From an uncultured Bacteroidales bacterium (lineage in GTDB: Bacteria > Bacteroidota > Bacteroidia > Bacteroidales > Dysgonomonadaceae), in the NCBI GenBank assembly GCA_964293155.1, contig CAXYYA010000028.1, positions 1 to 48,569 on the forward strand: a DNA stretch of 48,569 nt, given 5' to 3'. Below are positions 7,640-36,687 of this stretch, one piece after another. The notes under the pieces are model-generated. The model was not told the origin of the DNA, searched no databases, and saw only the letters and a list, made by a program, of their open reading frames with translations. Position numbers and translations under genes: made by a program. Each line of letters begins with the position of its first letter. Position 1 is the first letter of the stretch.

Positions 7640-9310
7640 ATGACTATTCTTCCCGAAAAAATAGAAAATTATTCCGGCATCATCGCTTTTATGCTTAAGT
7701 ATCGTAACAGCCACGTTTTTAACACCGTTGTGGATAATGCCGCGGACTTAGACGATGACGAAAAAACCGAAAGCGATGATTCAGGAATAACTCCGCAGGA
7801 TTTTGCAAACGATCTTAAACAGATGGGCCCCGTGTATGTGAAGTTGGGACAACTCTTATCCACACGTCCCGATTTATTACCCGAAGAATATTTGGATGAA
7901 CTGGCAAATTTGCAGGACGATGTAGAACCCATTGGATATGGGAAGATTGAGCGGTTGATAGAAGAGGAATTGGGTGTAAGAATTTCCAAAGCTTTCAAGA
8001 CATTTGATCCGGCACCCTTAGCCAGCGCTTCCATCGGCCAGGTACACAGGGCGGAATTGCCATCGGGCAAAAAAGTGGCCGTTAAGGTGCAGCGTCCCGG
8101 TATCCGGAAACAGTTTACGGAAGAACTGGAAACCTTAAAAAACATGGTGGACATGGCCGTAAAATACACGAAAACAGCCGATAAATACGCGCTGGACGAT
8201 GTTCTGGATGAACTCAGCCACATGTTAATGAACGAGCTGGACTATAAAATGGAGGCTCAAAGTCTGGTTATTTTGGGACAAAATCTCAAAGAATACAAGC
8301 GTCTTATCGTTCCTCAGCCGGTGATGGATTATTGCACTCCAAAAATCTTAACGATGGATTATGTGGAAGGTAAGAAAGTTACAAAAGTATCGCCATTTAC
8401 CAAAACGGAAGTGGATTTCACTCCATTGATCGATGAGTTAGTTAAGTCCTATCTTCAACAAGTGGTTATTGACGGTTTTGCACACGCCGATCCGCATCCG
8501 GGTAATGTACATTTTACTCCTGACAATAAAATAGCGCTGATAGATTTGGGCATGGTAGCCAAATTTAGCAATACGTTGAAAGATCAAATGTTGCGTTTGC
8601 TCCTTGCCATGAGTGAAATGTCGGGCGATAAGATCGTGGATATTTTACTGGGAATGAGCACGTATGACGAGACTGCAATGATAAAAGATTTCAGGAAAGA
8701 TGTTAACAGATTAGTTCTGGATAATCAAATCAGTATCGCTAAAGATTTAAAAACAGGCCGACTGATTATTCAAATGAATCGGATGGCTGCCGAGCGAAAC
8801 ATAAAAATAGCCGTAGAACTAAATCTGCTCGGCAAAATATTGTTGAATATTGATCAGATTATTGCAACATTAACTCCCGATTATGATTTTCAGAAAGCTA
8901 TAAACGAAAATGCCGAACGGTTGATGACGCAGAAAATGACGCAGGAATTGAAACCTGAAAACATGTTTAAAATGCTGTTGGAAACCAAAAAATTGGGCGA
9001 AAATTTACCGGAACGTTTAAACAAAATTTCTCAACGTTTAGCGGACAACGAGTTTGAAATTAAAGTGAATGCGATTGACGAAAAACGTTTTACCGATGGT
9101 TTTCAGAAAGTGGCTAACCGAATTACTGTGGGGTTAATAATTGCGGCACTTATTCTTGCCGCTTCTATGCTCATGCGTATGCCCACAAGTTTTACCATTC
9201 TCGGATATCCCGGGTTACCCCTTATTTTCTTTTTAATTGCATCCGGAGCAGGGATTATGTTGGTTTATAATATCATATCGAAAGACGAATATTTCCGAAA
9301 AAGAAAATAG
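7640..9310 (+). CDS. ABC1/AarF/UbiB-family atypical protein kinase with a C-terminal membrane anchor
   Basis: 556 aa. The ABC1 kinase-like core (GQVHRAEL, VAVKVQRPG, HADPHPGNV, IDLGMVA) is followed by two C-terminal TM helices. Confidence 0.85.
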   Translation: MTILPEKIENYSGIIAFMLKYRNSHVFNTVVDNAADLDDDEKTESDDSGITPQDFANDLKQMGPVYVKLGQLLSTRPDLLPEEYLDELANLQDDVEPIGYGKIERLIEEELGVRISKAFKTFDPAPLASASIGQVHRAELPSGKKVAVKVQRPGIRKQFTEELETLKNMVDMAVKYTKTADKYALDDVLDELSHMLMNELDYKMEAQSLVILGQNLKEYKRLIVPQPVMDYCTPKILTMDYVEGKKVTKVSPFTKTEVDFTPLIDELVKSYLQQVVIDGFAHADPHPGNVHFTPDNKIALIDLGMVAKFSNTLKDQMLRLLLAMSEMSGDKIVDILLGMSTYDETAMIKDFRKDVNRLVLDNQISIAKDLKTGRLIIQMNRMAAERNIKIAVELNLLGKILLNIDQIIATLTPDYDFQKAINENAERLMTQKMTQELKPENMFKMLLETKKLGENLPERLNKISQRLADNEFEIKVNAIDEKRFTDGFQKVANRITVGLIIAALILAASMLMRMPTSFTILGYPGLPLIFFLIASGAGIMLVYNIISKDEYFRKRK

Positions 9311-9490: not shown

Positions 9491-9839
9491 ATGATTATCC
9501 GCATAATGTCCTACATCAATTGCCACGTCCCTTTACAGGCTGTGTAAAAAACATCGCAACAGTATCAATTTGTCATTCCGACGATAGGAGGAATCTTATT
9601 TGTCATAAATTATAGACTCTTCACTCCGCAAAGCTGCGTTCAGAGTGACAAAAAGACACCTAATTTTCATTTTTACACAGCCTCTTTAGGGCGTGGTTTT
9701 TGAGATACAGAGCAGATAGGCTTTAGCCGAAATTTATACTATTATTGGGCTGAAGCCCGTAATTCTTAGACATTATTATCCCACGACTTAAAAATCGTGG
9801 CAATAGATAAAGCCGTTAGGACACTTTGCGGATAATCAT
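9491..9839. mobile_element. MITE-like element of the outer family (TIR ATGATTATCCGC / GCGGATAATCAT) carrying a nested 148-bp insertion
   Basis: Terminal inverted repeats and subterminal hairpins (CCACGTCCC...GGGCGTGG, CCACGACTTAAAAATCGTGG). With the 9536-9683 insertion removed, it is near-identical in reverse complement to 46226-46420. Confidence 0.7.
9536..9683. mobile_element. Nested 148-bp MITE-like element of the inner family (TIR CAGGCTGTGTAAAAA...TTTTTACACAGCCT) with a 5-bp CTTTA target-site duplication
   Basis: Flanked by CTTTA at 9531-9535 and 9684-9688. The uninterrupted homologous site at 46226-46420 reads CCTTTAGGGCG. A second copy lies at 23143-23291. Confidence 0.65.
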
Positions 9840-9984: not shown

Positions 9985-11580
9985 TTAGCTACTGCACACC
10001 TGCAAAGCGGCCGGAACAATATCAATGGTTACGGGAGTTGTGCCGCTGATCTCACCGTCAATTACCAGTTTCTGCGTCGGGTGTGTATCTAACTCCACGT
10101 GTTTCCCCTGAAAATGCTTCACGAATTCGCTACCTTCGGTAGGTTTGTCTTTGAGCAACTGCACCAATGTTTCGGCGGCATTTGCTTCGTTTTCCACGTT
10201 CACGATTACCGTCACGTCCAGCAGCCCGTCGTCCGGTAACGGTTCAGAACCTCCCTGTGCAAAAATGGATGTTTTAGGTGCAGTGTTTGCGATTGTTACG
10301 CTTCCGGTTTGAAACGTGTAGGTTTGATCATCAACTTTTAACGTTGCTTCAAAAATATCTTCTTTTTTAATGTGTTTTATTCCTCCGAGAATGTATCCGA
10401 AAGCGCCCCATTCGTCTTTTAAGCCGTCTTCGGCTTCTTCGGTCATTCCGCGCTCCAAACCTGCGCCTGCAAGCAAAACCATGTAAGAGTCGTTTATTTT
10501 CGCTATATCAATTTTGCGCGTTTTTCCCGAAGTGATCACGGCGCACGCCGTTTCAATGGGTTTCAACCGGATGCCATCGCCGTACAACATGGAAGCCAGG
10601 GCGTTGCTCGTCCCGAACGGAATTATTCCCATTACTGCGTCGGTATTTACCAAGGCTTGAGCCACCTGTGTTACGGTACCGTCGCCTCCGGCGGCAACCA
10701 CAAATTGCTTCCCTTCATTCACCAATTGTTGGGCAATGTCTTTAGCCTGATTTTGCTCTGTAGCTTCATGGAACGTGAGTTCGAAAAAGCTTTTCAACAG
10801 TTCGTTGACTTTATCCAGTTTTTCTTCTTTGGCTGTTCCTGCTGCTGCATTATAGATGATATGCAGTTCATCGGATTTCTTTTCCATGGATATCCCGAAG
10901 CTGTTCAGACTGGCGAATTGTCGTGTATTCGGCTTAACGTTCGGCCTGACTTTCCGGACTTCGTCAATCAAATCCTGATACGAACGCGACGGGTCCAGAA
11001 ATTTGAGATACGCCAAAAGTACGGTCACCGACCGACCTTGTCCCAATGCGCAGTGGATCAAAACTTCTTTTCCGTCTTTTCGTTGCTGATCAATCCATCT
11101 GACAGCCATTTCCAATTGGTTTTTCCGGGGACTATTGTGATCCATTACCGGGATGTTCAGATATTCTACATCACGTCCTAAAAATTGTGTTTCAATGGCA
11201 TCGAATTCAGCCGTAACGTCCAGTATGGCATTGATAGGACTCTCTTTGAGCGATTTCAGATCGGTGAACACCAACCGTCTGCTCAACCATAATCCGTCAC
11301 GGATTTCCTGCAATGGTGGCACATTGTCTCTTGATCGGGCGATCAGATTAAAAATGGTGGCGCCCAGCAAAACCGGAAATATGGCAATTTTTATGTAAAA
11401 CGGTAGTCGCCCGCCCTTGCTTTTAAAAAGCATTTCGCCGAAGTCGGCGAAATAAGCGATCGCGTAATAAAGCGATGAGAGCGATATCCAGATTAAAATG
11501 ATCTGTAGGATAAGAGGAGTGAAAAAACTAAGTACGGCAACAAGTACCGAAAAAATCAGGTAGATGTATCCTCTGTTCAT
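9985..11580 (-). CDS. Membrane-anchored fusion protein: dual-specificity/tyrosine phosphatase domain plus diacylglycerol-kinase-family (YegS-like) lipid kinase domain
   Basis: 531 aa with N-terminal TM helices. The CX5R phosphatase motif is VLIHCALGQGRSVTV. The DAGK_cat glycine motif is FVVAAGGDGTVTQV and a YegS-like C-domain follows. Confidence 0.75.
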   Translation of the reverse strand: MNRGYIYLIFSVLVAVLSFFTPLILQIILIWISLSSLYYAIAYFADFGEMLFKSKGGRLPFYIKIAIFPVLLGATIFNLIARSRDNVPPLQEIRDGLWLSRRLVFTDLKSLKESPINAILDVTAEFDAIETQFLGRDVEYLNIPVMDHNSPRKNQLEMAVRWIDQQRKDGKEVLIHCALGQGRSVTVLLAYLKFLDPSRSYQDLIDEVRKVRPNVKPNTRQFASLNSFGISMEKKSDELHIIYNAAAGTAKEEKLDKVNELLKSFFELTFHEATEQNQAKDIAQQLVNEGKQFVVAAGGDGTVTQVAQALVNTDAVMGIIPFGTSNALASMLYGDGIRLKPIETACAVITSGKTRKIDIAKINDSYMVLLAGAGLERGMTEEAEDGLKDEWGAFGYILGGIKHIKKEDIFEATLKVDDQTYTFQTGSVTIANTAPKTSIFAQGGSEPLPDDGLLDVTVIVNVENEANAAETLVQLLKDKPTEGSEFVKHFQGKHVELDTHPTQKLVIDGEISGTTPVTIDIVPAALQVCSS

Positions 11581-11761: not shown

Positions 11762-13153
11762 TTACAACAGATTACTTGCCAGTTCAGAAAGCTCGCTCCG
11801 TTCACCTTTCACGAGGTTTACGTGCGCGAAAATATTTTGTCCCTTCATCTTATCAATCATATACGCAAGGCCGTTGGATTGCGAATCGAGGTAAGGTTGG
11901 TCAATTTGTTGCAGGTCGCCCGTGAACACCATTTTTGTGCCTTCGCCTGCGCGGGTGATAATGGTTTTCACTTCGTGAGGGGTGAGGTTCTGAGCTTCGT
12001 CTATAATGCAAAACGTTTCCGTGAGGCTACGGCCGCGGATGTAAGCCAAGGCTTCGATTTCCAGTTGTCCCGATTTTTGCATTTCTTCAATTACGCGCAA
12101 ATCGCCGCTGTTGGTTCCAAGTTGCGATTTGATCACGTTCAGGTTATCGAAAAGCGGTTGCATGTAAGGCGCGATTTTCTGTTTTTCGTCGCCGGGCAGG
12201 AATCCCAGGTCTTTGTTGGACAATGATACAATGGGGCGCGCAAGCAGTATCTGATGATACAGTTTGTTTTGTTTGAGCGCCGATGCCAGCGCCAAAAGGG
12301 TTTTTCCGGTTCCGGCTTTTCCGGTGAGCCCCACGAGTTTCACTTCGGGATCGTTCAACACCTTAAAAGCAAAAGCTTGTTCGGCGTTTCGCGGATGGAT
12401 GCCGAAATTGTTGTCTTTATCAACCTTTTCAACCGTTTTGGTGAACGGATTGTAGCGTGCCAATACGCTGTTGCGGTCGCTTTTAAGTATAAAACACTGG
12501 TTTGGCGCAATTTCCGTTTGAAAATTGAATTCGTCGAAATCCACCCCTTTTTGCTGTGCATAGATCTGATCAATCAAATCGGGATTCACACCCTCAATAA
12601 CGAGCTCTTCCTGTTCAAATATGTCAATGTTGGTAACTTTGTCAGTGATATAATCTTCGGCCAGCAATCCGAGCGAGCGCGCTTTCATGCGCAGGTTAAT
12701 ATCTTTGGATACTAAAATGGCTTTGGTTTTCGGATATTTTTCCGTGATGCTTTGCAAGGTGGACAGTATGCGATTATCAGGGACTCTTTCGGGGAAAGCT
12801 TGCGTAATTTTCGGATTATCAGGAATATTAACAATGTATAATTTTCCGCGTCCGACACCGAGTTCGGCTCCGTTGGTAAACAGATCATCGTCTGTTATCA
12901 GGTCCAGTTCCCGCACAAATGCGCGAGCATTAAAATTTATTTGTTCGTTGCCTTTTTTAAATTTATCCAATTCTTCCAATACCACAAAAGGAATATAAAC
13001 ATCGTTCTCTTCAAAATTATCCAAACACTTGTAGTCGTGCAGGATAACGTTGGTGTCGAGAATGAAATTCTTTTTGGGATTCCGTGAAGTTGATTTAGTC
13101 TTTACGGTTGACTTTTCGGTTGTAGCTTTCGTAGTCTTACCAGTTGTTGCCAT
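11762..13153 (-). CDS. PhoH-family ATPase with an N-terminal PIN domain (YlaK-like)
   Basis: 463 aa. The PIN-like N-terminus is NFILDTNVILHD. The Walker A is GLTGKAGTGKTLLALA and a PhoH C-domain follows. Confidence 0.85.
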   Translation of the reverse strand: MATTGKTTKATTEKSTVKTKSTSRNPKKNFILDTNVILHDYKCLDNFEENDVYIPFVVLEELDKFKKGNEQINFNARAFVRELDLITDDDLFTNGAELGVGRGKLYIVNIPDNPKITQAFPERVPDNRILSTLQSITEKYPKTKAILVSKDINLRMKARSLGLLAEDYITDKVTNIDIFEQEELVIEGVNPDLIDQIYAQQKGVDFDEFNFQTEIAPNQCFILKSDRNSVLARYNPFTKTVEKVDKDNNFGIHPRNAEQAFAFKVLNDPEVKLVGLTGKAGTGKTLLALASALKQNKLYHQILLARPIVSLSNKDLGFLPGDEKQKIAPYMQPLFDNLNVIKSQLGTNSGDLRVIEEMQKSGQLEIEALAYIRGRSLTETFCIIDEAQNLTPHEVKTIITRAGEGTKMVFTGDLQQIDQPYLDSQSNGLAYMIDKMKGQNIFAHVNLVKGERSELSELASNLL

Positions 13154-22987: not shown

Positions 22988-23142
22988 CGTAATTTATCCT
23001 ATATTTTTATTGGGCTACAAAGATAGTGAAAATGCTTTATTTGGCAAAGACGTAAAGTTTATCCGCAATGTTTCGAGGCTGAGAATTTTCAGTAGTCATG
23101 GCTAAAGCCGGTGTTCACGTTTGCTGGGTTCTCCGCTTTAAA

Positions 23143-23291
23143 CAGGCTGTGTAAGAAACATCGCAACAGTATCATTTTGTCATTCCGACGATAGGAGGAA
23201 TCTTTATTTGTCATAAATTATAAACTCTTCACTCCGCAAAGCTGCGTTCAGAGTGACAAAAAGACACCTAATTTTCATTTTTACACAGCCT
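23143..23291. mobile_element. Second copy of the inner-family MITE, 149 bp and about 97 percent identical to 9536-9683
   Basis: Same TIRs and internal sequence. It is flanked by TTAAA/CTAAA. An isolated outer-family terminus, ATTGCGGATAATCA, lies at 23316-23329. Confidence 0.6.
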
Positions 23292-23850
23292 CTAAAAGCA
23301 GGGTTATTAAGACGTATTGCGGATAATCAAAAAAATGACTATTTTTGTGAACGGGAAAAACATTTGTAAATGCCCATTAATTTGGTTGATTATTAAATCG
23401 CATAAATGAAGATGTTGGCAACGATTTGTAAATGTAAACTACAAAAATTTGGTAAATGGACAAGATTTGGTTAATAACAATAGCAACTGCAATTTTTTTG
23501 ATCATAAATTTTCTTTTTTATAAAACGCTCAACGTGTATTACAAAGAGGAATTTGGCAAAAAGACGTGAAAATTAGGAGGAGGGAGAATATACTTTTGGC
23601 AGGCATCAATAATTGTCAGCACAATAGGTGCGTTGATAGCAATTTATTTTTTAAAATAGTAAACGTTCATCACACCCTTCCCGCTTACGCGGATTTCTCG
23701 TCATAACGAGCGCACAGGTTCGAGCGGTAATCGGTGTGTGCCGCAGGCAAGAGTTTACTTCGTAACACACGCTTTGCAAAAGCGCGCGAGCACAAGCGGG
23801 ACACGAAGTTTGTAACTTCGTGAACGAAGGCACAGCCATCGTCTCCCAAT

Positions 23851-28323: not shown

Positions 28324-29696
28324 TGTAACGCGAGATTTAAAAGATGATTATTATATTTGTATGTTGTGTAATTGGTTGACGAATAGGCGTATCCTTCCCT
28401 TTGTTGCCATTGATATCCGGCCGATAACATGGTTTTTTTGATAAAATAGGAGAGGGAAGCACCCGCAAGGGCTTTAACGGGATCGTACGTGTCGTAAACT
28501 AAAAATGAGTGCCCGGTAATGTAATTTTGATGATTCCCGATGCTGAACGCCCCATCCAGCCACAGCGATTTGGCTAATTTTACACCCAAATTTTGAGAAA
28601 AAACAACTTGTGTGCCTGTCCAGGCGTTTTGGTTGTAGATGGCTGCAAGAGCGGTTGTTCCGTAAAAATCGAGGTTTCCCAGCGGATAATAAGTGAGCGA
28701 TCCTTTTGCCTGATACTGATGTCCGCCGCCGAAATTGGAATAAGCCACGGCAATTTCGGGCAAGGTGTACGCAGAGCGTTTGTTAAGAAATGCCAGCATG
28801 GAGAAAGCCGAAATCGTGTTTCCGGTTGATGCGGTGTAATATATGGAAGGATAATAAAAACCGCCTCCGCCAGGGCCCCCGCCTCCTCCACCCGGGCCGT
28901 ATCCGCCGGCACGCGTTCCCATAGTGGCAGATGCAACAGCGGTCGTAGTGTACGGGATCGCTTTATCAATCTTTTCGATGTTGTAATACGCGCCGGCAAA
29001 TCCCCAGGTAACGTTATTATCCGAGAAAAAATCAAATCCGGCGATCAATTGATGTTGAGACAATCTCTCTTCTTTTACCAATCCCGTGCTGTTTGACCGC
29101 TGAAACTTGGTGTTATACAGTTGATATCCGAGTTTTAGCTTGGCCTTGTCGGAGAGTTTAAACCCAACGCCCAGCGTAGTGAATACCATATCCTGAAACT
29201 GGTTCAGCGAATCGTAGCCCATAAAATTTGAACGCAGATCGGGTTTGTTGTCGTTCGTAAGATAACCGCCTGAGAGCGCAATAAAATCCATCGCCGAAGG
29301 CGAATATCCGATAGCGGCCTGCGTGTGTGGCGCGAGCGATTTGGCAAGTATATCGGCATTGTTTTTCTGGCCGCTCAGCAGGTAGGCGTAATACAGGCTT
29401 TCCAACAGAGCCGGCTCGGTGGAAGTTTCTGCAAGCGTTTTTTTGTAAAATTCCGCCGCTTTGGCATAATTTTTCAGTTCATAATAAGCAATAGCGGTGC
29501 GGTAATTCAGATAATAAAAATCAATGTTTTGCGCCTGCGCCTGTTTGCTGGTCTCAATCAGATTTTTATAATCCTTTTGCAGGTATTGCTGATAGGTAAT
29601 GCTGTCAATGCGGGTTGCTTCCGGGCTTTGTTGCGCCTGTAGCGCAAACGTCCACATCATCATTACCGTTGCGAATGTTATACCCATTCGATACAT
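28311..29696 (-). CDS. Outer-membrane protein with an N-terminal TPR-like region and a C-terminal beta-barrel-like domain with a Gly-rich loop
   Basis: 461 aa with a signal peptide. TPR-like helices are followed by a GGYGPGGGGGGPGGGG tract. The strand pattern alternates aromatic/hydrophobic residues and the protein ends NLALQWNF (terminal Phe). Confidence 0.5.
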   Translation of the reverse strand: MYRMGITFATVMMMWTFALQAQQSPEATRIDSITYQQYLQKDYKNLIETSKQAQAQNIDFYYLNYRTAIAYYELKNYAKAAEFYKKTLAETSTEPALLESLYYAYLLSGQKNNADILAKSLAPHTQAAIGYSPSAMDFIALSGGYLTNDNKPDLRSNFMGYDSLNQFQDMVFTTLGVGFKLSDKAKLKLGYQLYNTKFQRSNSTGLVKEERLSQHQLIAGFDFFSDNNVTWGFAGAYYNIEKIDKAIPYTTTAVASATMGTRAGGYGPGGGGGGPGGGGFYYPSIYYTASTGNTISAFSMLAFLNKRSAYTLPEIAVAYSNFGGGHQYQAKGSLTYYPLGNLDFYGTTALAAIYNQNAWTGTQVVFSQNLGVKLAKSLWLDGAFSIGNHQNYITGHSFLVYDTYDPVKALAGASLSYFIKKTMLSAGYQWQQREGYAYSSTNYTTYKYNNHLLNLALQWNF

Positions 29697-31870
29697 AAGA
29701 CATGTTTTTTAGTGTTAATTTCCATTCTGTTTTTTATTACCGTGATAGTTGATTCTTTCACCGGCATTTTTATATTGAACGACTTAGCGTCTATAATGCT
29801 TTGATATACAATTTTTTCAGGATAAAAAATATGATCCGATTCCGTTAATTGCGAACGGTAATTTATGGTTGTGAAAATAACAAAAGGCGCCAAAAAATCC
29901 TGAAACCAACGCGTTCCGAAGGGGTGTTCCTTGGTAAGCGGTATTTTATCGGTAACGGAGATCTCTTTTTCGTTGGACAGCAATAATTTAAAGCAACTAC
30001 GGTAAAACAAATACAACGGCGATGATTTTCTTCCTTCAAAATCGGTAAAATAGAACATGGTGCCATCGTTTTCCACGTACGCCACGGCTTTCGATTTTTC
30101 GCAACGGATGTAGGTTTTGTTGTATTCGTCGGTAGCAATTGTCCAGGGATAATTTTCGTTGTCGTAGGTAACTTTCAGCAACCGGCCCGGTTTGCCTTCG
30201 AAAGCATCTTGCGCCAGCAACGAAGGAACTACGTTGAAGATCGTAGTATCCTGTTTCGGAACCTCGCCGATGTGCAAGAGCGGCTTACCGGCTGTTTTTT
30301 CAAAGAAATAACCCATGGGGTACGCATGTGTTGCCGACCCGATTTCGGGCGACAACTGCACCTGAAAATGAAGGTGCGGCTCCGGCGAACGTCCCGAATT
30401 GCCGCATGCGGCAAGTACGGTTCCTTTTGTTACATAATCGCCGGTTCGCACGTTAAAACTGTCTTTTTTAAGGTGGCTTAGCTGCGAGTATAACCCGTTC
30501 AAATGATTGATAATGATCGTATTTCCCCAATTCTTTTTCGTGTTTACATCATTTATTTCATTGTCTTCGGTAATGTTGCTGATCATGTACACATAACCGT
30601 CGGCCGGAGCCAACACCGGTTTGTTGTAACAGTAAAAATCTTCTTTCTGCGCACACCGGCCGAAACACGTTTTTCCTTCTTCGTCCGTGATCATAAAATC
30701 CAACGCTTTTCCCCATGCGCCCAGGTGGGTTATTGTACCGTTGTAGCCCTGCGTTACACGCCATTCTCCCAAAAAAGGCAATTGCATTTTAAACAGCATG
30801 TTTTGTGCGAAACGCTGCATGTAATTCACGTTTTTATATACCGTTTTCTCGGGATTATAATATTGAATATACGGAAAAATAAAGAACCGGCTAAAGCTGC
30901 GTTGTTTGAGAATGAACAGTACGAGAATGGATAAAAGACTGAATGATAATGTGTAAGAAGACAGCCCGGTATCCGATATCAAACTCTCCACGCTGGCATA
31001 AAACAGAAACAGGGCGGGCGTGAGGCCAATGACCAGTATGTAGCTGTAGATGTTGGGGATGATAAAGAAGCTTCCGATTGCCATTCCCCAGAAAATGTAG
31101 TTAACGCCAGCCAGATCCTGCGTGAGTTCTGCGATATCCACGCCAAGCAATTTACTGATGATAAATGCAAAGAAAAATCCAAAAAATGCTACCGTGGATT
31201 TGATGCGTGAGTGAAAAAGCAATGCAACGGCTATGATGATGCCGACTAACACGCTGTCGGTAAAGAAAATGGATGCCAATGTTTTAAAATAATAAAACAA
31301 CATGGGCGGCAAGTGCGCATTATCGAGTGAGTGGACGAAAGTGTACCACGGTACTTTCATTTGCCCGGCCAACACGATGGTGAAACGGTCGAACGGAATA
31401 ATGTACTCAATGTTCGTGAACGATTTTACCGAAAGATCAACGATGAACAACGTGAAAACAAACGGCAGAGTAAGCACGGGAATATCGTGCTTCGCAAAAA
31501 CCGATTCGAGCCATACCGTGAACATGAATACCAGAATAACCGATAAAACAAAAAGAATAATGAACGAGCCGTTCACGTAAAATTTGTAAACCAGACTCAA
31601 CCCGACAAAAACGGCGTTAAATCCGTACAATCCGCTCTTGATCCTTTTCTTCGAAAATCCGAGCCCGTGCGCGATGATGTTCGTCAGAACCACAGCCGAA
31701 AGTCCGCCCAATCCCAGCCGGATGTCCAGCATGCTAAGCACCAGCAAGATGATCGCTAACCACCTGCTTTGCGAGAAAAATATCATGGCATAGCTGTTCA
31801 GCGTGCCATCGAGATACATCAACGCGTATGATTTGAGACTTTGTTTCATTTGTTTATGATTTCGGGACAA
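29678..31870 (-). CDS. Polytopic membrane protein (urea-transporter-like duplicated domain) fused to a C-terminal M23/LytM zinc metallopeptidase domain
   Basis: 730 aa. The first ~330 aa hold about 10 TM segments with internally repeated GLYGFNAVFVG / LAGVNYIFWG and LTLPF motifs. The M23 motifs are HLGAWGKALD ... GNSGRSPEPHLHFQV. The stop overlaps the downstream gene start by 19 nt. Confidence 0.7.
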   Translation of the reverse strand: MSRNHKQMKQSLKSYALMYLDGTLNSYAMIFFSQSRWLAIILLVLSMLDIRLGLGGLSAVVLTNIIAHGLGFSKKRIKSGLYGFNAVFVGLSLVYKFYVNGSFIILFVLSVILVFMFTVWLESVFAKHDIPVLTLPFVFTLFIVDLSVKSFTNIEYIIPFDRFTIVLAGQMKVPWYTFVHSLDNAHLPPMLFYYFKTLASIFFTDSVLVGIIIAVALLFHSRIKSTVAFFGFFFAFIISKLLGVDIAELTQDLAGVNYIFWGMAIGSFFIIPNIYSYILVIGLTPALFLFYASVESLISDTGLSSYTLSFSLLSILVLFILKQRSFSRFFIFPYIQYYNPEKTVYKNVNYMQRFAQNMLFKMQLPFLGEWRVTQGYNGTITHLGAWGKALDFMITDEEGKTCFGRCAQKEDFYCYNKPVLAPADGYVYMISNITEDNEINDVNTKKNWGNTIIINHLNGLYSQLSHLKKDSFNVRTGDYVTKGTVLAACGNSGRSPEPHLHFQVQLSPEIGSATHAYPMGYFFEKTAGKPLLHIGEVPKQDTTIFNVVPSLLAQDAFEGKPGRLLKVTYDNENYPWTIATDEYNKTYIRCEKSKAVAYVENDGTMFYFTDFEGRKSSPLYLFYRSCFKLLLSNEKEISVTDKIPLTKEHPFGTRWFQDFLAPFVIFTTINYRSQLTESDHIFYPEKIVYQSIIDAKSFNIKMPVKESTITVIKNRMEINTKKHVLCIEWV

Positions 31871-36123: not shown

Positions 36124-36687
36124 TTATTTTGTGGTTTCCCTACGGTCGCAAATACCGTTTTTATTGGCGTCCACAAAATTTACCGCACTGCCTTTTCCAT
36201 TCCGAAGGCCGGTGCCTTTCCCTGTACCGCGTCCCTGGCGCGGTGTTCCGTTTTCGAAGTTGTCACAAATGCCGTCTTTGTCGGCATCTACGAAATTTGC
36301 TCCACCACCTCTGCCGTTACGCAGTCCGTTGCCATAGCCTTGTCCGCGTCCTCCACGGGGAGTTCCGTTTTCGAAATTGTCGCACACGCCATCTTTATCG
36401 GCATCCACAAAGAAGCGTCCTTGTCCTCTGCCGTTGCGTAATCCCTGGCCTTTGCCTTGTCCGCGGCCGCTACCGTCGAGCAGTCGTTGTTTGCCGTTGG
36501 CATTCGGATTTCCGGGTGTTCCGTTCTCGAAATTATCGCAAACGCCGTTGTTGTTTTTGTCCACAAATGCAGGTCCGGTTTGAGCGGTTTTCGCCGTTTC
36601 CTTTGCTGCCTGATTTTGATTTTGGGCGGTTGCTAATCCTATGGTGGCAACCAGCGCCATTGCAGTGATAAATACTTTTGTTTTCAT
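36124..36687 (-). CDS. Secreted protein with four canonical EF-hand calcium-binding loops separated by Gly/Arg-rich linkers
   Basis: 187 aa with a signal peptide. There are four repeats FVD(A/K)(D/N)K(D/N)G(V/I)CDNFENGTP, and each matches the EF-loop D-x-D-x-D-G-x-x-D-x-x-E and contains one Cys. The linkers are GRGQGKGQGLRNGRGQG. Confidence 0.6.
   Translation of the reverse strand: MKTKVFITAMALVATIGLATAQNQNQAAKETAKTAQTGPAFVDKNNNGVCDNFENGTPGNPNANGKQRLLDGSGRGQGKGQGLRNGRGQGRFFVDADKDGVCDNFENGTPRGGRGQGYGNGLRNGRGGGANFVDADKDGICDNFENGTPRQGRGTGKGTGLRNGKGSAVNFVDANKNGICDRRETTK

Follow-up and report, generated by a model that had tools for sequence, protein, structure and literature searches.

A catalogued bacterial protein family joins membrane helices, a DSP-type cysteine phosphatase and a DgkB/YegS-type lipid kinase, and shares its membrane-phosphatase module with PAP2 proteins

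Introduction

The bacterial lipid kinases DgkB, BmrU and YegS are soluble proteins of ~300 amino acids (aa) that share a two-domain fold and the motifs GGDGT, DDG and DGE. Catalytic roles of these motifs in DgkB were reportedly set out by Miller and colleagues in 2008. Here, we analyze a gene whose product contains a kinase of the same fold and motifs but, unlike these enzymes, tethers it covalently to a membrane phosphatase. The gene lies at positions 9985..11580, on the minus strand, of a 48,569-nucleotide (nt) stretch from an uncultured Bacteroidales bacterium of the Dysgonomonadaceae (contig CAXYYA010000028.1 of GenBank assembly GCA_964293155.1); we refer to the whole stretch as the window and to the gene product as the fusion protein.

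A kinase and a phosphatase on one chain, as in the fusion protein, are known from PFK-2/FBPase-2, a bifunctional kinase/phosphatase switch, and the same kind of pairing defines Pfam family PF22741 (PTP-NADK). The likeness to PFK-2/FBPase-2-type switches is one of general description, and the fusion protein differs from them in having no regulatory domain. Among Cys-based phosphatases of lipids, PTPMT1 and its Rhodopirellula baltica orthologue dephosphorylate phosphatidylglycerophosphate (PGP) in the synthesis of cardiolipin and phosphatidylglycerol (PG). To our knowledge, a single bacterial PTPMT1-like enzyme has so far been tested as a PGP phosphatase. Teh et al. (2013, PMC3576122) showed that this enzyme, a PTPMT1-like dual-specificity phosphatase (DSP) that carries a transmembrane (TM) segment, dephosphorylates PGP, and PTPMT1-like proteins are marked by an N-terminal TM or anchor segment, a CX5R motif that includes basic amino acids, and an Asp in the acid (WPD-type) loop (PMC3576122).

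Bacterial kinases of the DAGK_cat family use diacylglycerol (DAG), which is also the substrate of DgkB, or PG (in vitro), ceramide or dihydrosphingosine (PMC10331486); because family members use several lipids, the kinase fold does not by itself fix the lipid. In Staphylococcus aureus, DgkB is recruited and oriented at the cytoplasmic leaflet by GdpS, which is polytopic in the membrane and has an enzyme-like domain in the cytosol (PMC11962490).

Results

Architecture, distribution and conservation of the fusion protein

The coding sequence is complete, with an ATG start and a TAA stop, and encodes 531 aa; all coordinates given below for parts of the gene refer to the minus strand. The fusion protein scores 526.2 bits against NCBIfam NF009025 (PRK12361; cut-off 505, E = 6.9e-158), and the match runs end to end, from residues 3-529 on profile positions 6-538 of 546. 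Three Pfam domains score above their cut-offs, at levels well outside what chance would give: DSPc (PF00782; residues 108-228, E = 1.1e-18, 67.8 bits against 33.5), DAGK_cat (residues 239-362, nt 10495..10866; E = 4.4e-25, 88.1 bits against 23.6) and the YegS_C beta-sandwich (residues 384-529, nt 9994..10431; E = 4.9e-14, 52.8 bits against 27). As delimited on the protein, the DSP phosphatase domain spans residues 89-232 (nt 10885..11316), and a variable, low-confidence linker (residues 229-238, nt 10867..10896) connects it to the kinase. An AlphaFold prediction of the full-length protein has a predicted local distance difference test score (pLDDT) of 85 and a predicted TM-score (pTM) of 0.64, with pLDDT falling below 50 at residues 233-235. 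The initial annotation, made from the sequence of the window, had proposed that one membrane polypeptide joins a Cys-based phosphatase to a DAGK-family kinase, and had suggested a domain search for DSPc and DAGK_cat; both domains are supported, as is YegS_C, and the motifs that it had pointed out are present, HCALGQGRS at residues 176-184 and GGDGT at residues 298-302. Our data thus confirm that one chain carries, after its membrane helices, a Cys phosphatase of DSP type and a lipid kinase of DgkB/YegS type.

This architecture is not new: it belongs to a catalogued, widespread and functionally uncharacterised family. NF009025, an equivalog named 'hypothetical protein', holds hundreds of proteins of the same ~540-aa length and the same domain order. 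A search of 5.8 billion proteins gave 780 matches; in the best 120 of these, all but one truncated sequence are full-length, at ~540 aa, and contain these three domains as well. The best 120 comprise proteins from Bacteroidia metagenome-assembled genomes (MAGs; 66-100% identity), from Puniceicoccales/Cerasicoccus (~42%), and from many Alteromonas, Shewanella, Pseudoalteromonas, Idiomarina and Colwellia (35-38%), and one protein (P0001) is 100% identical to the fusion protein. Gammaproteobacterial and verrucomicrobial members of NF009025 share 35-44% identity with the fusion protein and differ from it in carrying Arg rather than Gln at the fourth variable position of the phosphatase P-loop. The initial annotation had also raised the phylogenetic distribution of the fusion: in a collection of 185,579 species with one genome each, relatives are encoded at 382 stretches in several phyla, with members in Bacteroidia, Verrucomicrobiota and many Alteromonadales, and the closest is that of Bacteroidales bacterium UBA1035 (locus L006), at 91% identity. 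Existing names for relatives are generic, for example 'diacylglycerol kinase family protein' and, at JGI, 'diacylglycerol kinase family enzyme/protein-tyrosine phosphatase'. A literature search for PRK12361, for DSPc combined with DAGK_cat, for the fusion, or for the gene in marine bacteria found no paper describing them.

To assess conservation, we aligned two sets of family members, of 23 and 76 sequences. In the 76 fusions, which span at least three phyla, the phosphatase residues C177, R183, S184 and D147 are invariant and H176 reaches at least 90% conservation. In the kinase half, GGDG, D451-G452 and D508-G509 are invariant in both alignments, conservation of T302 and E510 is 90% or higher, and G323-T-x-N326 is invariant, or at least 90% conserved in the larger set. 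The catalytic Cys and Arg and the GGDG motif, on whose retention the initial annotation depended, are therefore kept on realignment and are invariant across phyla. In comparison with the 91% orthologue, the ratios of nonsynonymous to synonymous substitution rates (dN/dS) in the membrane region, the DSP domain and the kinase were 0.031, 0.023 and 0.038, respectively; these ratios are approximate because dS is near saturation. The DSP domain is the region under strongest constraint (0.023). Judged by these ratios, all three regions are under strong purifying selection, and neither catalytic domain is a decaying remnant.

A portable module of membrane helices and DSP domain

The initial annotation described the membrane portion of the protein as a TM anchor. 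A membrane segment is indeed present, but in place of a single anchor we found a conserved block of ~85 residues with three helices. Helices 1 and 2 (residues 3-18 and 23-45; segment 3-45, nt 11446..11574) are strongly hydrophobic, are predicted by AlphaFold2 with pLDDT 94-97, and can be read as a two-TM hairpin; their residues Y7, W31 and Y43 do not vary among the 23 aligned sequences, and conservation of each among the 76 is 90% or more. They are followed by a basic loop with conserved K53, G57 and P60 and by helix 3 (loop and helix together residues 46-84, nt 11329..11445). Helix 3 itself (residues 61-84) is kinked, with an invariant P69. The median best-window hydropathy across the family is 1.84 for helix 1, 1.96 for helix 2 and 1.28 for helix 3, and the share of sequences in which helix 3 exceeds the TM threshold is only 37% for fusions and 25% for the standalone forms (described below). 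Because of this lower hydrophobicity in most family members, helix 3 is probably interfacial rather than membrane-spanning. The loop before helix 3 and the segment after it each carry a net charge of +2, and hydropathy and flank charge together favor a topology with an N-in hairpin, an interfacial helix, and cytoplasmic DSP and kinase domains. Such a placement agrees with the location of ATP, since the kinase requires cytoplasmic ATP.

We searched a profile of residues 1-232, covering the membrane block and the DSP domain, against 1.84 billion representative proteins and obtained 246 matches at E <= 1e-30. Among the best 150 of these, 77 newly retrieved proteins are 200-270 aa long and span the complete profile with its membrane helices, and so represent a standalone form of ~235 aa. 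The best 150 also hold proteins of ~450-480 aa in which the module is C-terminal and the N-terminal half is PAP2/PAP2_3; PAP2_3 scores above its cut-off in P0247 and P0226 and below it in the others. Searches of NCBIfam and the PDB with the PAP2 halves gave no subtype. These uncharacterised PAP2-TM-DSP proteins (for example P0247, P0189 and P0254) carry the same module as the fusion protein but have an N-terminal integral-membrane PAP2/PAP2_3 partner in place of its C-terminal kinase. One relative of the standalone form, P0319 (395 aa), has an additional NUDIX domain (PF00293) in its precomputed Pfam list and is a candidate for a further partner.

The kinase-fused, standalone and PAP2-fused forms have in common, and in register, K53, G57, P69, an LDxTAE motif, D147, and the Cys and Arg of CX5R; C177, R183 and D147 hold across a mixed alignment of 25 sequences from the three forms. 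Predicted on its own, the module reaches pLDDT 91 and pTM 0.86, compared to a pTM of 0.64 for the full-length protein. On these predictions, the TM helices and the DSP domain form one rigid, portable unit, which is a new result of this analysis. Because both recurrent fusion partners, the kinase and PAP2, are lipid-phosphate enzymes, we infer by guilt by association, our best evidence on this point, that the substrate of the module is a membrane lipid.

The phosphatase domain and its resemblance to PTPMT1

The P-loop of the DSP domain (H176-C177-A-L-G-Q-G-R183-S184; nt 11029..11055) has the CX5R form, and D147 (nt 11140..11142), 30 residues ahead of the catalytic Cys, occupies the DSP general-acid position. 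The general-acid role of such an Asp is established in protein tyrosine phosphatase (PTP) enzymology, and D147 is invariant in four alignments (A1, A2, A4 and A5). A family signature, LDVTAEFD (residues 120-127, nt 11200..11223), is kept as D.T.E[FY] in all of the fusions (76/76) and in 13 of 16 standalone forms, and reads LDLTAE in PAP2-fused forms. The fourth variable position of the P-loop varies with architecture: it is R, Q or K next to a kinase (Q in the fusion protein, R or K in 49/76 fusions), H in standalone forms, and, in the majority of PAP2 fusions that we checked, an aromatic or aliphatic residue. No fusion (0/76) has Lys at the first variable position.

By sequence, the closest relatives of the DSP domain are protein-directed small PTPs and DUSPs (Tk-PTP, DUSP22 and MKPs). 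Sequence and profile searches of the PDB did not discriminate a DSP subfamily, with many DUSP subfamilies scoring about equally: archaeal PTPs, DUSP22 and MKPs each reach ~64 bits and PTPMT1, which ranks under many DUSPs, 50 bits. Structural neighbors of the domain include phosphoanhydride-cleaving Cys phosphatases, namely the RNA triphosphatases BVP and PIR1, and Siw14. For a direct comparison with PTPMT1, we used its catalytic-domain sequence, checked against 3RGO, together with full-length vertebrate orthologues. Profile-profile alignment with hhalign matched residues 63-232 of the module to PTPMT1 residues 12-185 (98.8% probability, E = 5e-17), placing helix 3 (IKIAIFPVLL) opposite the PTPMT1 membrane anchor (ARVLFYPTLL), LDVTAEFD opposite ITMNEEYE, and D147 opposite the Asp of PTPMT1 STVDM, with flanks that differ (PVMDH in the fusion protein). 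Two of the marks of PTPMT1-like proteins, the N-terminal membrane segment and the acid-loop Asp (D147), are present in the fusion protein. The module differs from PTPMT1 and its R. baltica orthologue in having two extra TM helices; the P-loop Lys of PTPMT1 is missing from the family, its P-loop Arg is missing as well from the fusion protein, and PTPMT1 is not fused to a kinase. Overall, the TM-DSP module weakly resembles the lipid phosphatase PTPMT1, and the likeness of helix 3 to the PTPMT1 anchor is suggestive only.

These data also bear on the idea that the kinase is the sole working lipid enzyme of the fusion protein, with the TM-DSP module either tethering and orienting a DgkB-like kinase or acting elsewhere as a protein phosphatase. 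The affinity of the DSP domain to protein-directed PTPs and DUSPs would fit such a role, as would a P-loop, HCALGQGRS, without the basic residues of lipid-directed PTPMT1, and soluble DgkB depends on a polytopic membrane protein that has an enzyme-like domain in the cytosol with a non-catalytic role (PMC11962490). The fusion protein could reproduce the GdpS-DgkB geometry in cis, where GdpS acts in trans and non-covalently; GdpS has a GGDEF domain with a dispensable catalytic motif, whereas the fusion protein has a DSP domain with invariant catalytic residues that is widely found without a kinase. The invariance of C177, R183, S184 and D147 in 76 fusions, in what is the most constrained region of the protein, argues against a mere tether. 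So does the abundance of the module in proteins without any kinase, because of which kinase tethering would not be its primary role, and fusing a mere tether to PAP2, already an integral-membrane protein, would make no sense. We therefore consider this explanation quite unlikely.

The kinase half

The DAGK_cat domain carries GGDGT (residues 298-302, nt 10675-10689) and GTSN (residues 323-326), and the YegS_C domain carries D450-D451-G452 (nt 10225-10233) and D508-G509-E510 (nt 10051-10059), which align with DDG and DGE of DgkB. In a HMMER alignment that also included BmrU, the motifs are in register with those of DgkB (2QV7). The best-scoring NCBIfam kinase models are the 'putative lipid kinase' PRK00861 (273 bits) and PRK13057, followed by YegS and DgkB; the sequence matches of the kinase half in the PDB are DgkB, BmrU and YegS. 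Foldseek ranks BmrU and DgkB first (TM-score 0.85, E = 1e-23), then SphK1 (E = 1e-19), YegS and AGK. The kinase half falls just below the cut-off of the TIGR00147 subfamily (113.7 against 118.65 bits) and far below those of the kinase equivalogs, including the ones for DgkB (NF009874, 98.3 against 385 bits; NF009603, 102.9 against 342) and YegS (TIGR03702, 90.4 against 387; NF009602, 110.8 against 284). Judged by these matches, it is of lipid-kinase type and belongs to a divergent branch, as an orthologue of no characterised member. For YegS itself, we know of no physiological role.

The kinase fold is held in common with NAD kinases, which raises the possibility of nucleotide chemistry, with an NAD kinase/NADP phosphatase-type pair as in PTP-NADK. 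Weak Pfam matches to the corresponding families lie below threshold (PF22741, 19.4 against 27 bits; PF01513 NAD_kinase, 23 against 25.5), NAD kinase equivalogs score 15-17 bits, and NAD kinases are far weaker structural matches than lipid kinases, appearing in Foldseek only at E = 1e-11 and TM-score 0.6. A soluble nucleotide substrate would moreover leave the conserved membrane-embedded module unexplained. We reject this reading as barely credible.

A role in sphingolipid metabolism, in which a sphingoid-base or ceramide kinase is joined to a sphingoid- or ceramide-1-phosphate phosphatase, can also be considered, and Bacteroidales commonly make sphingolipids. SphK1 is a strong structural neighbor of the kinase half, the DSP domain bears the invariant acidic LDVTAEFD signature, and bacterial DAGK_cat kinases include the ceramide kinase CpgB and the Porphyromonas gingivalis dihydrosphingosine kinase dhSphK1 (PMC10331486). 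However, BmrU and DgkB match the kinase half better than SphK1 does, and the window contains no sphingolipid synthesis gene. In addition, most members of the family are found in Alteromonadales and Verrucomicrobiota, groups that we do not know as sphingolipid producers. We give this possibility only a slight chance.

Genomic context

Downstream of the fusion gene lies a convergent ABC1/UbiB gene (7640..9310, plus strand). The initial annotation had drawn attention to this neighbor. The convergent adjacency stands; its significance does not, as UbiB is absent beside the fusion gene in L006 (91% identity) and in L009 (66%, a Dysgonomonadaceae MAG), where the gene for the histidyl-tRNA synthetase HisRS directly follows. 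Its absence from the closest relative makes the adjacency of UbiB incidental. Among the compared loci, UbiB and a repeat-bearing gap separate the fusion gene from HisRS only in the window genome and in L007, which indicates a lineage-specific insertion or loss. The gap between UbiB and the fusion gene is 675 bp long and contains a repeat element; within it we found no open reading frame (ORF) of at least 60 aa, no Rfam family and no tRNA.

The repeat element is ~150 nt long and occurs twice in the window, at 9535-9685 and 23142-23293, in copies that are 97-99% identical and have no Rfam match; the first copy is the one in the convergent gap. Its ends are inverted (ACAGGCTGTGTAAAAA ... TTTTTACACAGCCT), it contains internal hairpins (GTCATTCCGACGATAGGAGGAATC and CACTCCGCAAAGCTGCGTTCAGAGTG), and it looks like a small mobile element of the miniature inverted-repeat transposable element (MITE) type.

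Upstream, 181 bp from the fusion gene, is a gene with PIN_4 and PhoH domains (a PhoH2-type RNA helicase/RNase; 11762..13153, minus strand). Its adjacency to the fusion gene is kept only in L007 and L008; the PhoH2-fusion-UbiB order was considered as an operon signal and rejected, being limited to two Bacteroidia lineages. Outside Bacteroidia, neighbors are entirely different: in Cerasicoccus the convergent neighbor of the fusion gene encodes a PAP2 protein, and in Alteromonas the fusion gene is flanked by DUF2878 and hemerythrin genes. Clustering the neighbors at 79 genome loci yielded recurrent neighbors that are specific to Alteromonadales only, namely hemerythrin (25 loci), DUF2878 (20), a sigma-54 activator (19), GDH (15), BON (14), DUF2254 (10), phospholipase A1 (6) and DUF1328 (6). 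They have an envelope or stress flavor and make up no biosynthetic operon or pathway. The phospholipase is the sole repeatedly seen lipid-enzyme neighbor; a gene for this outer-membrane enzyme (Pfam PLA1) lies directly upstream on the same strand in six Colwellia/Aliiglaciecola loci (L037, L045, L049, L051, L061 and L085). For the standalone module, we found no recurrent neighbor in four long contigs and 24 usable metagenome loci.

In two related loci, a UbiA prenyltransferase gene is convergent with the standalone gene. This arrangement is among the observations that would suit a function in supplying polyprenyl phosphate, with the kinase acting on undecaprenol and the DSP domain on undecaprenyl pyrophosphate at the cytoplasmic face, both to give undecaprenyl phosphate. 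The PAP2 family supplies periplasm-facing undecaprenyl-pyrophosphate phosphatases, so that a protein fusing the module to PAP2 would have active sites on both membrane faces, and phosphoanhydride-cleaving Cys-phosphatase folds are among the structural neighbors of the DSP domain. This support is entirely circumstantial. The PAP2 subtype search made no assignment, and in the loci that we examined neither uppS, bacA nor any other cell-wall gene is a conserved neighbor. We also know of no DAGK_cat-family kinase that uses polyprenols, and the undecaprenol kinase that is known is a member of DgkA, an unrelated family. Taken together, we regard such a function as improbable.

Other features of the window

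The remainder of the window is ordinary Bacteroidales chromosome. A 730-aa ORF (29678-31870, minus strand) pairs a urea-transporter (UT) membrane domain at residues 21-321 with a Peptidase_M23 domain at residues 416-505, an unusual combination. We also detected diverged direct repeats of 72-74% identity at 19725-19856/20288-20419, at 35130-35193/35749-35812, and at 36145-36378, the last being a 117-nt tandem duplication. The first pair falls inside the adjacent ORFs 19578-20090/20135-20659 and the second inside the adjacent ORFs 34720-35328/35333-36025; because the repeats lie in adjacent ORFs of like size, each ORF pair probably represents tandem paralogous genes.

Discussion

We have described a protein in which a membrane block, a Cys-based phosphatase and a lipid kinase are joined, and in which the first two parts recur as a unit in other contexts. 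We consider it possible, though doubtful, that the fusion protein is a bifunctional lipid-phosphate enzyme at the cytoplasmic face that carries out two same-direction steps of anionic-phospholipid recycling. In this model, the hairpin and interfacial helix would pack rigidly on the PTPMT1-like Cys phosphatase and place its CX5R pocket at the membrane surface, on the cytoplasmic side of the inner membrane, while the flexible linker would tether the DgkB/YegS-type, ATP-dependent lipid kinase to the same membrane patch. The kinase would convert DAG to phosphatidic acid (PA), and the phosphatase would strip PGP of its terminal phosphate, yielding PG; both steps would then lie on the route from DAG through PA, CDP-DAG and PGP to PG. 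Three elements of the model are inferred, namely the topology, the action of the phosphatase on a lipid, and the particular substrates, and the specific assignment of DAG and PGP is its weakest step.

Several of our observations weigh against this model. The basic residues in CX5R that characterize PTPMT1 are lacking because the variable residues of the P-loop are ALGQG, and relatives carry at most one. Homology between helix 3 and the PTPMT1 anchor is not claimed: aligned alone, the two fall in the same register, but 12 of 200 column shuffles equal the score (p ~0.06). The kinase half is an orthologue of neither DgkB nor YegS by the profile scores, and since bacterial kinases of its family use several lipids, DAG as its substrate is a guess. 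In no lineage that we examined is pgsA, cdsA, cls or another phospholipid gene a conserved neighbor of the fusion gene. Finally, invariant catalytic residues do not prove that catalysis matters, by analogy with GdpS, which keeps its GGEEF motif, yet does not need it for its role (PMC11962490).

A different model, put forward in the initial annotation, has the kinase and phosphatase oppose each other on one lipid. We take as examples the interconversion of PG and PGP or of DAG and PA, by a reciprocally regulated switch of the PFK-2/FBPase-2 kind that would control how much of a phosphorylated lipid is present. Both active sites are intact, invariant and under selection, they are carried on one polypeptide with a short flexible linker, and the fusion is kept across phyla. 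A matched pair is possible in principle, given PTPMT1-type DSPs that dephosphorylate PGP (PMC3576122) and YegS, which is cited as a PG kinase in vitro (PMC10331486). In addition, because Pfam PF22741 ('DSP-PTPase fused to NAD+ kinase') exists as a separate family, in which a DSP is paired with a kinase of the same superfamily as that of the fusion protein, such pairings recur in the kinase superfamily; the fusion protein itself scores below the PF22741 cut-off. On the other hand, Pfam searches found no sensor or regulatory domain in the fusion protein, and an unregulated pair would burn ATP. Since the module occurs alone and with PAP2, it would need no kinase to make its substrate. The kinase scores 90-111 bits with YegS models whose cut-offs are 284-387 and is no orthologue of YegS, and the PG kinase activity of YegS is one observed in vitro only. 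We consider opposing activities rather unlikely, and slightly prefer two steps in the same direction; same-direction steps or tethering by the DSP domain fit the evidence equally well as opposing activities do.

Beyond the individual protein, the helices and DSP domain may define an unrecognised family of bacterial lipid-phosphate phosphatases, embedded in the membrane, facing the cytoplasm and related to mitochondrial PTPMT1, that work alone, with PAP2 or with a kinase, and the kinase fusion may act as a self-contained kinase/phosphatase device controlling the amount of a single phosphorylated membrane lipid. We hold this broader proposal to be unlikely as it stands. If true, the lipids concerned would be PGP, PA or polyprenyl phosphate, and bacteria would possess a lipid homeostasis or signaling switch without a characterised precedent.

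Our analysis adds a clearly delimited lead to a family that is already catalogued, and nothing categorically new. The function of the fusion protein is directly testable because the family is common in culturable marine Alteromonas, Shewanella and Pseudoalteromonas. Bacterial DgkB/YegS-type lipid kinases and Cys-based lipid phosphatases are both poorly mapped, and this family hard-wires the two together; the reuse of its membrane-phosphatase module with PAP2 enzymes directs attention to a hitherto unexplored part of envelope lipid metabolism.

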